A stretch of DNA of 64,000 nucleotides from Octopus vulgaris (taxonomy: Eukaryota), in the NCBI GenBank assembly GCA_951406725.2, contig OX597821.1:107694001-107758000 (forward strand), given 5' to 3'. The first letter of the stretch is position 1; each line of letters opens with the position of its first letter. Below the pieces are notes generated by a model. That model was not told the origin of the DNA and searched no databases. It saw only the letters and a program-made list of their open reading frames with translations. Made by a program: the position numbers and the translations under genes. This document shows, one piece after another, positions 5,209 through 58,570 of this stretch.

Positions 5209-5964
5209 GAGTATGTATGTATGTATGTATGTATGTATGTATGTATGTATGTATGTATGTATGTATGTATGTATGTATGTATGTATGTATGTATGTATGT
5301 ATGTATGTTTGTATGTATGTTTGTATGTATGTATGTATGTATGTATCTATACATGCATATATATATATATATATATATATACATATGTTTATATATATAT
5401 ATAAGTCCTAGGGTCGATTTCCTCGACTAAAACGCGGTGCTCCAGCATGGCCGCAGTCAGATGGCTGAAACAAATAAAAGAGAGTATACATATAAACGCT
5501 TATATGTACACATACACATTGTATACACACACACGCGCATACGCATACACACATATACATACATACACCTTATATACACATATAGATATCGATAAATACT
5601 TACCCACACACTTGCATGTGCGTCTATATTTGCTTACGTGTGTTTGTTGTATGTGTGAATGGATGTGTTTGAAGTAATATTTATGAATATTTACGCTTGT
5701 TTATCTTTCGCAGAAATCTATAACCTATCGAATAGGTTTAACTTCTGAAAGCCATTATAGTAAGACAGCGTTTTCTAAAAAATAAAAGCAAAAAAATAAA
5801 CAAATACAAAATACAAACAAACAAATAATACACTATATATATATATATATATATATATATATATATATATATATATATATGTAGGTCCCGGGTTGAGTCC
5901 GGGTTAACCACAGTAAATAAGGTACTCAATACATAGCAGAGTAAATTAATTTATTTTATAGAAG

Positions 5965-6017
5965 GAGCTTCTACAGGACTAGAACTGTTTCATTCAGAAG
6001 AAATCATCAGGAAGCTC
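5965..6017 (-). ncRNA. Type I hammerhead ribozyme
   Basis: gagcttc-CTGATGA-tttcttctgaat-GAAA-cag-ttctagtc-ctg-TA-gaagctc. Confidence 0.85.
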
Positions 6018-6022
6018 ATCAC

Positions 6023-6075
6023 GAGCTTCCTGATGATTTCATTTGAATGAAACAGTTCTTGTCCTGTAGAAGCTC
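6023..6075 (+). ncRNA. Type I hammerhead ribozyme
   Basis: gagcttc-CTGATGA-tttcatttgaat-GAAA-cag-ttcttgtc-ctg-TA-gaagctc. 7-bp stem I, 4-bp stem III, GUA triplet at 6066-6068; stem II is weak and closed by U-U. Confidence 0.85.
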
Positions 6076-6721
6076 CTTCTATAAAATATATATATATTTA
6101 TATATATATGATGAAACTATACGTACCAGGTGAACCTATATCTTGACAGGAAACTCACAAAAGCGCAATAGTGTCAAACTCCGTCATTCACCAAAAGCCA
6201 ACCACATAAGATTGGCCATTGAAAAGGGGAATTACACCGGTGGTGTTCCAGCATGGCCACAGCCTTAAGGCTGAAATGTATTAAAGAATATATATATATA
6301 TATATATATATAAAAACACACACACATGCATATATCTGTTACATCATTCTTGTCTTCTCCTTTTCTTTATATCATGCTCCTCGTTGCGCTAAAGTCTTTT
6401 ACACAACAACAACAAAGAATGAATTTATTCATTTAGTAATTTAGTAATTCTTTCGCGGGTAAACGGAGGAGGCTTTTGGTAAGTCATTCGATCAGCTAGA
6501 AATAGCAGTGATATTTACCTCCTAAATCGCGCCCTACTGCCATACAAAAATGAGGAAGCTTTCAATATGGTTCTGGGTTATTTGCAGATAGAGAAAATTA
6601 AGGTATTTGCCGAGGCTGGAATAACTCTAATTATAAATCTTCTCAGTAAGGGATGAGCAACAAAAATAATAACAATAATAATAACGAAAATAGCAACAAC
6701 AATAACAACAACAGCAACAGT

Positions 6722-7147
6722 GGAGACGCAATGGCCCAGTGGTTAGGGCAGCGGACTCGCGGTCGTAAGAACGCGGTTTCGATTCCTAGACCGGGCATTG
6801 TGAGTGTTTATTGAGCAAAAACACCTAAGCTCCACGGAACTCCGGTGGGTAGGGGTGAACCCCGCTGTACTCTTTCACCACAACTTTATCTCACTCTTTC
6901 TTCCTACTTCTGCCACATTTAGACCCTAGTCTAAATTGCGAATCCTCTGTACCCCAGGGTGGTTCAGCTCTCTACCCGTTAAAAACCACCGTTTACGGAA
7001 TGAGAATAACAACGTAGCTTTCGCGCCCGTGCAACCGTCAGTCAATCGTGTGTGGTGGGTGGATCTTCAAGTTGTCACAGCTTAGAGTAGGCTCGAATTA
7101 GAAATTATTTTTTGTAGCTAATGGCGTGAGTCCTGATTGGATGAAGA
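6722..7147 (+). mobile_element. tRNA-derived SINE (domain A + a different tail ending in (AAC)n)
   Basis: ggagacgcaatggcccagtggttagggcagcggactcgcgg...gtttcgattcc head and domain A, then unrelated sequence from about 6910. Confidence 0.8.
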
Positions 7148-7354
7148 ACAACAACAGCAGCAAAAACAACAACAGTAACAACAACAACAGTCTTTCTTTT
7201 CTTATTTTTTGATTTCTTTAGATATTTAGTCTTCATGCGAGTTGGCTTCAAAATTGCTTTGAGACACAAGGTACGTTATGTAAGTCTGCCCAACCACGTG
7301 TCTCCATAGCAAGAAACTTTTAATAGCTCTTATTTTAAAACAGTGTACATTAAA

Positions 7355-7740
7355 TGCTGTGTGGTAAGAAGTAAGCTTCCCAACCACATGATTCCGGGTT
7401 CAGTTCCACTGCATGGCATCTTCGGCAAATGTCTTCTACTATAGCTCTGTGCTCACCAAAGCCTTGTGAATGAATTTGGTAGACAGAAACTGAAAGAAGC
7501 CTGTCGTATATATATATGTATATGTATATCTATTTGTGCGTGCTTTTGTGTCTGTGTATCTCCCTCTTGACAACCGGTGTTGGTGTTTTACGTCCCCCTT
7601 TACTTAGTGGTTCGGCAAAAGATACCGATAAAGTACCAGGCTTAACAAAATTGTCCTGGGATCGATTCATTCAGCTAAAAGCTTCTTAAAGGTGGTGCCC
7701 CAGTATGACCATAGTCTAACCACTGAGGCAAGCGAAAGTT
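7355..7740 (+). mobile_element. SINE family C
   Basis: Near-complete copy with internal (TA)/(TG) tract. Confidence 0.88.
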
Positions 7741-8159
7741 AAAAAATAAAAGATATGCATGTATGTATGTATTTATGTATGTATGTATGTATGTATGTAT
7801 GTATGTATGTATGTATGTATGTATGTATGTATGTATGTATGTATGTATGTATGTGTGTATGTATGTGTGTATGTATACATGTATACGTCTGTTTATGTAT
7901 TTTACTGATGTAAATAAAGGCCTGTCTGTCTTCATGTATGATTGACGAGTGTTTGTTCCCGTAATCAAGGGTTATGCTCACGTAATTGTCTGCCAATATC
8001 ACGAAACACGTGTACATTATATAAGTTATTAATATCAATATACATTTGGTACCGACTTCGTTCTCTGTGTTCTTTCTCCTTATATGCATGTTTTTATGTA
8101 TGTATGTATGTATGTATGTATGTATGTATGTATGTATGTATGCATGTATGTATGTATGT

Positions 8160-8660
8160 ATTTATGTATTATCTGGACATTCCTTCTTCAGATATCGGTT
8201 ACCAGATACGCCGAAACAATTGTAGTGATTCGTAATAAAGTCTGTTAATTCCATCGTTTCGTATTAAAATTATGTCTCTCTGTCCGTCTGTCTGTCCGTC
8301 TGTCTGTCCGTCTGTCTGTCTGTCTGTCTGTCTGTCTGTTTGTCTGTCTGTCTGTCTGTCTGTCTGTCCGTCTGTCTGTATGTATGTATGTATGTATGTA
8401 TGTATGTATGTATGTATGTATGTATGTGTGTGTATGTATGTTTTTCTGTATGGTTGCATGAATGCATGTATGTTTGTATGTATGTATGTATGTATGTATG
8501 TATGTATGTATGTATGTATGTATGTATGTATTATCTGGTTAAACTCCAAAGCCTCTCTTCGGATATCGGCTACCGCATGCGCTGAAACAATTTTAGTGAT
8601 ACGTATTAAAGTGTGTCCATTCCATCTTTTCCTATTAAAATTCTTATGTTTGTCTGTCTA
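8160..8660. repeat. Diverged direct duplication of about 110 bp separated by microsatellites
   Basis: tattatctgg...cttcagatatcggttacc...gaaacaattgtagtgattcgtaataaagt...ttccatc at about 8165 recurs at about 8528. Confidence 0.8.
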
Positions 8661-56572: not shown

Positions 56573-56975
56573 AGCTATAACATATCTAATTACGATTTTA
56601 GACGGGAAAAGCCATAAATGGCATTGTGACACTAAAGGCTTAGGATAAAATATATGCAGATACTCACGCAGACGTGAGAAAGAATACGAGAACAAAAAAA
56701 AACAAAAAAAACATGCATGAAGATGGAATTGTGAAGTCTTGGAGATTGGAAAGCATCAAAACGTGATATTAATGTAGGATATTGGAGTAAATATTTGCTC
56801 TTTTGTTAGGAGTATCATACTGATTAAATTGTCGACATTTTAATGAATTTCTCTCTCCTCCCTATCTCTTTCTCTCTCTCTCTCTCTCTCTCTATCTGTC
56901 TATCAATCTATCTGTCTCCTCCCCTCTCCTCTCTCTCTCTCTCTCTCTCTCTTTATATATGTATATATATATATA

Positions 56976-57271
56976 GGTTGTGAGCTCGAATCCCGGTCCG
57001 GGCTGCGTGTTGTGTTCTTGAGCAAAGCACTTTATTTCACATTGCTCCAGTTCACTCAGCTGTAGAAATGAGTTGCGACGTCACTGGTGCCAAGCTGTAT
57101 CGACCTTTGTCTTTCCCTTGGATAAACACTGGTGGCGTGGAGAGGGAGGCTGGTATGCATGGGCGACTGCTGGTCTTCCATAAACAACCTTGCCCGGACT
57201 TGTGTCTAGGAGGGTAACTTTCTAGGTGCAATCCCATGGTCATTCATGACCGAAGGGGGTCTTTACCCTTT
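56976..57271 (+). mobile_element. SINE (domain B + a further tail), 5'-truncated
   Basis: B box tcgaatccc, then gtgttcttgagcaaagcactttatttcacattgctccagttcactcagctg. Confidence 0.8.
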
Positions 57272-57301
57272 ATATATATATATATATATATATATACTAC
57301 G

Positions 57302-57679
57302 GCACTCCGTCTGTTGCGACGACGACGGTTCCAACTGATCCGATTAACGGAACAGCCTGCTCGTGAAATAAACGTGCAAGTGACTGAGCACTCTGCAGAC
57401 ACGTGTACCCTTTATGCAGTTCTCGGGAGAGATTCAGCGTGACACAGAGTGTGACGAGGCAGGCCTCTTTGAATTGCAGGTTCAGTAGAAACAGGAAGAA
57501 AGAGTGAGAGAAAGCTGTGGTGAAAGAGTACAGCAGGGTTCACCATCACCCCCTGCCGGAGTCTCGTTGAGCTTTAAGTGTTTCGCTCAATAAACACTCA
57601 GAACGCCTGGTCTGGGAATCGAAACCGCGGTCCTATGATCGCGAGTCCGCTGCCCTAACCACTGGGCCATCACGCTTCC
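57302..57679 (-). mobile_element. tRNA-derived SINE (domain A + tail 1)
   Basis: Homology to 20594-20953. Confidence 0.9.
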
Positions 57680-57872
57680 ACATCGGTAATATATATATAT
57701 ATATATATATATATATATATATATATATATATATATATATATATATATATATATATATATATATATATATATATATTAATAGTAATGGTAAGACAACAAA
57801 AGAATGAAAGAGACATAATAATGTAGAGGAATTTATTTGTAATATAATATATGACAATTATTCGGTTGCCAT

Positions 57873-57933
57873 GATAAAACTCCGAGTTTCGGATGTCGGG
57901 CCGGAAACCTGCTCCGGCATCTCTTCAGTTATC
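57873..57933 (-). ncRNA. Type I hammerhead ribozyme
   Basis: gataa-CTGAAGA-gatg-ccgga-gcaggtt-tccgg-cccga-catcc-GAAA-ctc-g-gag-TT-ttatc. Confidence 0.85.
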
Positions 57934-58143
57934 GAGGCAATCAAAATATGCTATGAAAATGACCGTTAAACAAAGGGAAATTACAATGTAAATGACCGTT
58001 ATTAAGTCAAAAGTGCTATTAGAATTACCGTTTTCCCCCCCTTACTTAGTCATTCTAATAGCTCTTTTGTCTTAATTACGGTCAATTACATAGTAATTTC
58101 CCTTTGTTTAACGGTCATTTTCATAGCATATTTTGATTGCCTC

Positions 58144-58204
58144 GATAACTGAAGAGATGCCGGAGCAGGTTTCCGGCCCGACATCCGAAACTCGGTGTTT
58201 TATA
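58144..58204 (+). ncRNA. Type I hammerhead ribozyme, mirror copy with stem III and stem I mutated
   Basis: Same motif but ctcggtg-TT-ttata. Confidence 0.75.
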
Positions 58205-58570
58205 ATGGTAACCAAATAATTGTCACATTATGTTACAAATACACACACACGCACACACACACACACACACACACACACATATATATATATAACATGGCAT
58301 AATTATAAACAGGGCAAATCTTAGCCATTTCTCTGCAGACTGAAAAGAAAATGATGAACAACCTTAATCGATTTTCGTAACTTATTGGGTTCTCATCAGA
58401 GGCGGCTACGTCATTCTGACATTCTCCTGAGAAAAAAGTAGCCAATCTGTTTATACACTCAACAAATGTACCAGTTACTTTAGGAAAGAGTCCCTAATTT
58501 GAATACCGAAAGTATTTAACACTCTATAAATACCAACGGCCTGTCAACGGGGATCTTAGTCCACACAGTA

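Follow-up and report, generated by a model that had tools for sequence, protein, structure and literature searches.

Four fold-back cassettes in a 64,000-nt stretch of the Octopus vulgaris genome (the window hereafter) are best read as insertion products made by the machinery of Penelope-like elements (PLEs), with their fixed polarity as a by-product of insertion, a reading to which a probability of about 0.8 is assigned. The architecture, polarity and target of the cassettes are already published and constitute the usual PLE landing pattern. What is new, judged from the sequence, is an abundant non-coding retrozyme family of known type, represented by the third cassette.

Architecture and polarity of the cassettes

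The four inverted repeats reported by a preceding sequence-only reading are present at the positions claimed: C1 (5949-6091, arm identity 93%), C2 (23347-23678 and 25088-25421, 96%), C3 (27299-27753 and 27898-28354, 97%) and C4 (57834-58241, 89%) supply the top five rows among 16 inverted matches with arms less than 2.5 kb apart in the window. Their primary sequences are indeed unrelated, the best cross-match being a single 20-nt stretch (E 0.09). In all four, an inverted 5'-truncated copy lies head-to-head with its counterpart and the hammerhead ribozymes (HHRs) face outwards, on the minus strand in the left arm and on the plus strand in the right arm, as had been stated. The same polarity was found at an independent locus in sequencing run X4 (loose end at 27484, two contigs) and in L047:1313-1501, and the polarity count rests on these two cases plus the four of the window. 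Published insertions of endonuclease-positive (EN+) PLEs comprise an inverted 5'-truncated copy, a one-sided tail and a bias towards (TA)n (PMC3846280, PMC8557442), the head-to-head arrangement being the "most frequently observed" one (PMC3846280), and the cassettes resemble such units in their partial tandem and inverted 5'-truncated copies, head-to-head layout, one-sided tail and (TA)n target.

Adjacency to (TA)n, claimed for all cassettes, applies to six of the eight ends, against a background in which about 2.8% of window positions are no more than 3 nt away from the edge of a TA tract, but not to C2-right and C4-right, which end in (TATC)n and (CA)n, respectively. All ends sit in microsatellites, inside which no TSD can be read. 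In three of the four cassettes one arm alone bears a tail, of 68 nt (C1), about 40 nt (C2) and 58 nt (C4). These resemble the one-sided PLE tail of 30-40 nt (PMC8557442; PMC3846280; PMC11167929), although those of C1 and C4 exceed the published length, which counts against PLE insertion.

An HHR had also been assigned to every arm. Five of the eight arm motifs pass a strict type I descriptor, while C4-right, C2-right and C2-left fail. At a score of at least 12 the descriptor yields five hits, all in cassette arms (6010 minus, 6030 plus, 27482 minus, 28171 plus and 57928 minus), compared with 0.13 hits per shuffled window (30 shuffles). Rfam gave no hammerhead at the gathering threshold in the window and none in sub-region scans of C3 and C4 at E up to 5; among 150 of the 365 rows listed for the whole window, it returned a 5S-like gene, most of the rest being miRNA noise caused by microsatellites.

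The PLE remnant C2 and the C3 retrozyme family

C2 had been described as a coding PLE. Its sequence identifies it as a dead, 5'-truncated PLE of Neptune/Nematis type: a PLE remnant is present, but it is 5'-truncated and interrupted by frameshifts and an in-frame stop. The ORF remnant (23680..25182, plus strand) begins inside the RT and retains the RT thumb, a C-x4-C-x2-C finger in the linker and, as in EN+ PLEs, a C-terminal GIY-YIG domain with CCHH. In these features C2 resembles EN+ PLEs of the Neptune/Nematis type (PMC3846280; PMC8557442; PMC11167929), whose defining mark is a CX2-5CxxC finger in the RT-EN linker (PMC8557442), and differs in being truncated and broken. The C2 protein has 470 relatives, and the linker cysteines (C270, C275, C278) and the CCHH residues are invariant in all 19 that were aligned. 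Downstream, the 3' pLTR (25183..25508, plus strand) includes the tail (approximately 25469-25508) that is absent from the left arm. The latter (23324..23679, minus strand) is an inverted 5'-truncated copy consisting of the last ~95 nt of the ORF and the pLTR, and it ends at (TA)39.

The C2-right HHR (core 25299-25305, plus strand, predicted cut after 25324) has a variant U3-A8 core and a weak helix II, and the C2-left HHR (23476-23432, minus strand) carries a U4-to-C core change. A sense HHR behind the ORF is shared with EN+ PLEs: among 38 related PLE loci whose downstream sequence is long enough, it occurs in 24, the antisense orientation in one. (TA)n lies within 300 nt in 6 of these 24; the other 18, without such a tract, include several short contigs or tandem continuations. 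An HHR model built from these relatives only has its best match in the window at C2-right (E 0.002), on the sense strand in the pLTR, a candidate ribozyme with a weak fold. CTGAAGA motifs lying antisense within the pLTR of C2 (23368 plus, 25400 minus) were rejected, having no helix II and a model E of 0.54, in addition to which the relatives' HHRs are sense.

By its sequence features, C3 is a non-LTR retrozyme that was inserted in the manner of PLEs. The left arm (27298..27768, minus strand, HHR core starting at 27482, cut after 27434) is one full 471-bp unit. It stands in direct tandem with a partial upstream unit (27769..27897, minus strand) that begins 7 nt past the HHR cut site and differs from it at 6 positions. 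The right arm (27898..28355, plus strand, core starting at 28171, cut after 28219) comprises 0.97 unit and ends at (TA)91. Across (TA)19, a 33-nt remnant of the 3' end of C3 (27229..27261, plus strand), 100% identical and without an HHR, faces the left arm tail-to-tail; another tail-to-tail pair occurs at 42393-42452. The unit has 33% GC, under the limit of 45% set for non-LTR retrozyme units, is non-coding without a PLE protein match, and is strongly self-paired (z -5.0).

Three DNA-type runs with three organism labels, which may be from species other than that of the window (best word share 0.47), contain 4170, 3455 and 2401 variant contigs of the family, and in all three the head-to-tail joints step back 470-471. 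The family HHR varies at N7 and shows paired, compensatory changes in helices I, II and III. Tandem organisation amounts to 1.27 units in the window; family contigs show the joint, none spanning one unit, and an "active" retrozyme, according to a preprint, has two consecutive units with complete HHRs (bioRxiv 10.64898/2026.07.22.740005). No run on record as RNA appeared among the matches listed in the run search for C3, and a 23-nt C3 pattern gave 0 loci in metagenome contigs. As to editing, the counts for the family in run X10, whose RNA type is a guess, are uninformative, with A>G at 8 and T>C at 17 places compared with 7-9 and 13-14 in the DNA runs.

C3 resembles animal non-LTR retrozymes (PMC7229834 and the same preprint) in its non-coding head-to-tail unit, abundance, coexistence with PLEs, single canonical-shaped type I HHR per unit and strong self-pairing. 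Its 471 bp exceed the 350-390 bp of the mussel unit and fall within the preprint's range of 51-972 bp, whereas the inverted, TA-anchored insertion of C3 was not encountered in the parts consulted of the two papers. A literature search found no description of the family.

Short cassettes and HHR-like motifs outside the arms

C1 and C4 lack an ORF. In C1, the left arm (5881..6017, minus strand, core starting at 6010, cut after 5972) ends at (TA)23 and includes the tail at 5881-5948, absent from the right arm. A 5-nt junction (6018..6022), where both arms break off at the 5' boundary of helix I of the HHR, separates it from the right arm (6023..6088, plus strand, core starting at 6030, cut after 6068), which ends in a TA-rich tract. 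In C4, the left arm (57776..58028, minus strand, core starting at 57928, cut after 57878) ends at (TA)n and includes a tail at 57776-57833 that the right arm (58049..58241, plus strand, core starting at 58149) does not have; changes in helices III and I weaken both helices of the C4-right HHR. The relatives-only model ranks the C1 motifs next after C2-right in the window, misses C4 and matches C3 in part only, the latter two probably because of long helix II loops.

The odds are about even between C1 and C4 being other short non-autonomous families and being stumps of unseen PLEs, i.e. doubly 5'-truncated pLTR ends of autonomous elements elsewhere in the genome. Their arms extend only ~10 nt (C1) and ~100 nt (C4) 5' of the HHR core and, since the HHR of PLE relatives lies 77-772 nt behind the ORF end, no ORF trace would be expected in stumps; moreover, no tandem unit of either was seen in the window. 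On the other side, neither has a PLE protein match nearby, helix III of C1 is longer than in most PLE-linked motifs compared, and C3 shows that genuine non-coding families exist in the window. Of the several non-autonomous HHR families proposed, C3 remains as a true one, while C1 and C4 are indistinguishable from 5'-truncated PLE ends.

At least five solo HHRs had been asserted between the cassettes; none there passes the strict descriptor. Six HHR-like motifs with altered cores lie in that span (7942 plus, 14936 minus, 15719 plus, 20044 minus, 42625 minus, 44304 plus), none singly above chance, the best model E being 0.15. The latter value belongs to a motif in which an A3-U8 swap in the core is combined with a long helix I (44296..44341, plus strand; (TA)n at 44495). 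A minimal-HHR-like element with changed A6 (15715..15843, plus strand, core 15719) has a second copy of 80% identity (42500-42629, minus strand), both ending at (TA)n. The cores at 44304, 15719 and 42625 may simply reflect decay. The HHR motifs of the window as a whole resemble minimal and variant PLE hammerheads (PMC4209133) in a short or palindromic helix III, an extra base after position 9, the U3-A8 swap and the occurrence of opposite-strand pairs at distances of 100-700 bp; the A3-U8 swap and A6-changed cores were not encountered in the parts consulted of that paper.

Intact-core solo HHRs fall outside the span between the cassettes. One (2847..3015, plus strand, core 2855), with its 3' end at (TA)n, is distantly related to the C3 unit (67% across 95 nt, E 0.003); a second, minimal one (3850..3895, minus strand, core 3887) has a decayed relative near 3165 on the plus strand. 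The third (58291..58410, minus strand, core 58399) shares the microsatellite at its 3' end with C4-right, to which it is tail-to-tail and unrelated in sequence. Adjacency of solo motifs to microsatellites was judged by eye, and in isolation their folding does not surpass that of shuffled sequences (z below -1 in 0 of 6). Model matches at 49039 and 56138 were dismissed as chance, lying inside internally deleted mariner-like copies, and 46058, 16424 and 8191 (all minus) were rejected for want of a convincing GAAA box. A TA-centred hairpin at 11967-12318 contains no HHR.

Proposed origin of the cassettes and possible consequences for the host

The proposal of PLE-type insertion into TA microsatellites is supported by one-sided tails, head-to-head junctions, TA ends and the presence of a linker-zinc-finger PLE of the same layout. 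Each cassette would represent a single dead-end insertion by EN+ PLE machinery of the linker-zinc-finger (Neptune/Nematis) type. GIY-YIG would nick both strands of a TA-rich microsatellite, cleavage of both strands and extension having been reported in vitro for another PLE (PMC11167929). Each 3'-OH may then prime reverse transcription at either of two closely spaced internal starts on the 3' side of the HHR, a choice that would yield the one-sided tail, and both cDNAs, 5'-truncated, would be joined in the middle. Since the element 3' ends must both face the target, geometry dictates the head-to-head layout with outward HHRs. C2 would have been copied from autonomous PLE RNA, and C3 in trans from the 471-nt-unit non-coding retrozyme, probably as a linear, longer-than-unit RNA with its 5' end cut by an upstream HHR. 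Counting against PLE insertion, the window comparison found no similarity of C1, C3 or C4 to the C2 pLTR that would mark C2 as their partner PLE. The tail-to-tail pairs, the TA-centred hairpin lacking an HHR, the 18 relatives with no (TA)n in the 300 nt examined and the possibly different species of the sequencing runs also weigh against it. In a comparison with 88 further loci, the HHR elements of the window gave a single 23-nt match.

Within the PLE-insertion reading, two-ended priming is somewhat favoured. A single priming event followed by snap-back or self-priming, either on cDNA or, following a suggestion of Arkhipova et al. (2013), on an antisense template, has the same PLE origin and is a serious, if less probable, option. 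The arms are near-identical and have rare letters in common (11 of 16 family-rare letters occur in both C3 arms; of the 4 such sites covered by the partial upstream unit, 2 carry the family letter), the C2 tail sits on the longer arm as snap-back predicts, and the C3 junction falls inside a 12-nt palindrome at 27744, junction palindromes being an argument made in PMC3846280. Yet inward pairing of the inverted arms at that junction amounts to one G-T and then fails, without microhomology, and for a PLE both-strand reactions are on record together with a predicted dimer. The common rare letters of the C3 arms, which also speak for the PLE-insertion reading as a whole, could alternatively stem from gene conversion between the arms. 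That palindromic cassettes are themselves mobile, MITE-like or as hairpin retroelements copied whole, is very improbable: an opposite-strand joint of the C3 family (27614/27752) reaches a depth of 456 in run X4, roughly tenfold that of the single pieces listed for it (39-56), and turns up again in X3, but the four opposite-strand joints listed among 10 found differ mutually and from the window's own junction, and no cassette has a second copy in the window. Assembly artefacts in the form of fold-back chimeras can practically be set aside; inverted repeats beside long (TA)n pose difficulties for assembly (PMC8557442) and no long read or contig across any cassette was seen, but the arms show 3-11% divergence, including indels, and end unequally, and the polarity recurs in the unrelated data cited above.

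The predicted trapping of the HHR in read-through transcripts holds in computed folding. Forming the HHR helices requires +71 to +96 kcal/mol within whole cassettes, where their pairing probability is 0.0 compared with 0.28-0.46 in isolation, and +63 and +82 kcal/mol in nascent transcripts. According to the PLE-insertion reading, this burial in dsRNA would be a by-product; the fixed polarity is the documented PLE default (PMC3846280) and hence needs no host benefit. Selection for polarity, hiding the HHR from host pre-mRNAs or feeding ADAR or Dicer, is very improbable, even though the computed burial, the depletion of retrozymes in Xenopus introns (bioRxiv 10.64898/2026.07.22.740005) and the unusually many long dsRNA-forming loci and hyper-editing of octopus (PMC5625713) speak for it. 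Insertion alone yields the polarity, unpaired solo HHRs persist on both strands of the same window, three of the eight arm motifs are decayed, and PLE-type HHR monomers cleave poorly or need protein (PMC4209133; PMC11167929). Moreover, Pfam, applied to 120 of 208 candidate frames, the remaining 88 being mostly in repeats, gave one mariner match and no host exon. Opposite-strand HHR pairs 100-700 bp apart are already published (PMC4209133).

A more far-reaching, speculative and rather unlikely idea is that PLE-built fold-backs of several HHR families are a main source of the long, near-perfect dsRNA behind octopus hyper-editing, being ribozyme-silent in read-through RNA and accumulating in introns while sense solos are purged, and that the palindromic helix III could pair two HHR-cut RNAs in a dimeric PLE particle, one per nicked TA strand, setting up mirror-image insertion. 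One abundant and probably cephalopod family joins the known retrozymes, and C3, with its full PLE layout, lends structural support to the proposed carriage of animal retrozymes by PLEs. C3 probably also preserves a record of its template, an RNA longer than one unit whose start lay close to the HHR cut and from which both arms derive; this bears on how the tandem and inverted structures of PLEs form. Should the fold-backs be transcribed, part of the octopus excess of dsRNA and editing could be due to them.

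The fold-back cassettes and their surroundings

The four cassettes proposed by the sequence-only reading, C1 (5881-6088), C2 (23324-25508), C3 (27298-28355) and C4 (57776-58241), are real, and their architecture is already known. All four inverted repeats were recovered by self-comparison, and among the window's 16 short-range inverted matches the first five places belong to them. A strict descriptor of the type I hammerhead ribozyme (HHR) returned five motifs at or above 12, every one inside arms, versus 0.13 per shuffled window, while a looser one returned six at or above 11 versus 0.10, the extra one being a solo, outside the cassettes, at 58399. 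The claimed polarity likewise holds in four of four cassettes, the HHR motif lying on the minus strand in the left arm and on the plus strand in the right arm, with the C4-right motif weakened. Adjacency to (TA)n applies to six of the eight arm ends but not to the other two, as compared with TA-tract edges at about 2.8% of window positions, and the proposed five or more solos between cassettes are reached only if altered-core motifs are counted, not with intact cores. Given their small size, C1 and C4 may be either stumps of Penelope-like elements (PLEs) or non-autonomous families.

The surrounding DNA is AT-rich and dense in microsatellites and interspersed repeats, and a Pfam search of 120 of its 208 complex frames yielded mariner remnants only and no host gene. 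One such remnant (44660-46400; HTH_48 and Transposase_1 matches) is broken at approximately 44960-45490 by another frame, which lacks a Pfam match and which we take to resemble a LINE reverse transcriptase (RT) end. Two copies of 87% identity with terminal inverted repeats of 35-38 bp (48663-49233 and 55790-56333) apparently constitute an internally deleted mariner, and next to a SINE-like repeat lies a dispersed 5S rRNA-like copy (4655-4773, plus strand; Rfam 80 bits), either a pseudogene or a 5S-derived SINE head.

Further TA-centred features were observed. At 11967-12318, a SINE-related sequence of about 110 bp forms a 96% inverted duplication around a TA tract, devoid of an HHR, which together with stubs at 27229-27261 and 42393-42452 suggests a second, tail-to-tail class of fold-backs. 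A TA-flanked repeat family (14810-15130 and 19960-20216, 77%; third fragment at 15607-15688) features a hammerhead-like first box with GAAU instead of GAAA, and is a decayed or a variant HHR family. In addition, an HHR-like motif at 44296-44341 (plus strand) combines a long helix I with a core whose 3-8 pair is swapped to A3-U8, and (TA)n follows about 165 nt downstream.

The PLE of cassette 2 and the origin of inverted arms

C2 harbors a PLE protein comprising RT, thumb, a C-x4-C-x2-C linker finger and GIY-YIG with CCHH, and is a Neptune/Nematis-type PLE by the definitions of PMC8557442, which associates this finger with the targeting of (TA)n. Its best named relatives are found in Argonauta and bivalves. 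The element had been termed coding; the protein is present but begins inside RT and carries frameshifts and a stop. The left arm consists of a 3' fragment of the PLE in inverted orientation, and the right arm is longer by about 40 nt; a 22-bp tandem duplication in the PLE pseudo-LTR (pLTR) occurs in both arms (25355-25399 and 23369-23413), which differ from each other by a further 25-nt indel.

Of 88 related loci, 38 keep the ORF end complete with 150 nt or more behind it, and in these the downstream HHR is sense in 24 and antisense in one. Aligned by anchoring on our own HHR descriptor, 25 motifs from the related loci show covariation of the hammerhead type (paired cells 80%, versus 30-42% when slid), and the model derived from them ranks 25291-25335 (plus strand) first in the window (E 0.002). 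This C2-right HHR is a U3-A8 variant, shared by loci L015, L022 and L082 and similar to the swap in the PLE hammerheads of PMC4209133, which describes opposite-strand HHR pairs 100-700 bp apart with low monomer activity; the left-arm copy has a core change. In related locus L033, two mutually unrelated HHR-bearing ends (2306, plus; 2489, minus) face each other behind the PLE ORF, resembling C4-right and the 58399 solo. Relatives in bacterial genome assemblies (L081-L088), most on short contigs, are probably animal DNA contamination.

Direct and inverted pLTRs, one inverted pLTR bearing a tail, were described in PMC3846280, where head-to-head is the commonest PLE arrangement and pLTRs allow mobilisation in trans; PMC8557442 found this layout across clades. 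According to PMC11167929, a PLE cleaves and extends on both strands, two internal RT start sites bound the tail, and HHR cleavage does not occur without protein. Two-sided priming at a nicked TA tract would directly generate the observed cassette polarity. Snap-back is a possible alternative source of inverted arms, though microhomology is absent at the C3 junction.

A retrozyme family in cassette 3

The left arm of C3 (27298-27768, minus) makes up one 471-bp non-coding unit. Upstream of it, in direct tandem, lie 129 bp from the 3' part of another copy (27769-27897, minus), and the right arm (27898-28355, plus) comprises 0.97 unit. The unit (folding z -5.0, GC 33%) matched 4170, 3455, 2401 and 116 contigs in four public runs, and head-to-tail joints going back 470-471 occur in all three DNA-type runs. 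Among the joints listed, at least four opposite-strand ones lie at other positions. Among the 40 variant rows listed of 97, N7 is the only catalytic-core position to change; matched frequencies of variation are seen at helix II positions 27473 and 27452 (35/37% in run X1, 37/37% in X4), a helix III pair is swapped in a loose end at 27436, and helix I has A-U in the window arms versus U-A in the family. C3 fits the non-LTR retrozymes of PMC7229834 and bioRxiv 10.64898/2026.07.22.740005. Run X4 offers an independent case of a head-to-head fold-back: in two contigs, a loose end at 27484 passes from the antisense HHR straight into a sense HHR, with the junction at the helix I edge, as in C1; L047:1313-1501 has the same layout on another contig. 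Summed contig depth, which does not equal copy number, peaks at 27714-27761, just beyond the tandem joint as seen from the C3 3' end in the window, and may mark a 40-55-nt tail of other C3 copies.

Of 16 family-rare letters, 11 are common to both arms, and in the remaining five the right arm agrees with the family. Across its 129 sites, the upstream partial unit departs from the left arm at six, a stretch over which the two arms are identical to each other; at two sites it agrees with the family while neither arm does, and it begins 7 nt past the predicted HHR cut. Alternatively to a common template, conversion between arms could account for their shared letters. The simplest reading of these letters, made after the fact from a single locus and with comparison runs that may be other species, is that the template would have been a linear RNA that the upstream HHR had cleaved and that covered two different genomic units, rather than a rolled monomer circle.

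In the open-access literature searched, neither octopus hammerhead families nor the trapping idea discussed below turned out to be described. The 2026 O. vulgaris repeat annotation (PMC13282606) reports 31 recently active PLE families, and the terms ribozyme, retrozyme and hammerhead are all absent from its main text. One retrozyme family here is apparently undescribed.

Proposed hammerhead trapping and double-stranded RNA

It had been proposed that read-through RNA buries the HHR in dsRNA, sparing host pre-mRNA and feeding ADAR or Dicer. The geometry is borne out by computed folds of four motifs: mean pair probability of the HHR helices is 0.28-0.46 in isolation versus 0.0 in whole cassettes, where forming them costs 71-96 kcal/mol, and nascent-transcript folds suppress them likewise. 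Selection for trapping is unsupported; nothing shows that it maintains the polarity, solos remain on both strands, three of the eight arm motifs are decayed, and neither a transcript nor editing was observed.

PMC5625713 describes octopus as unusually rich in long dsRNA loci (4.4 per thousand) and as showing hyper-editing; the paired arms in the window, about 2.1 kb of 64 kb summed over cassettes, are a different measure. The fold-backs C1-C4 as a link to octopus long dsRNA and hyper-editing are worth testing.
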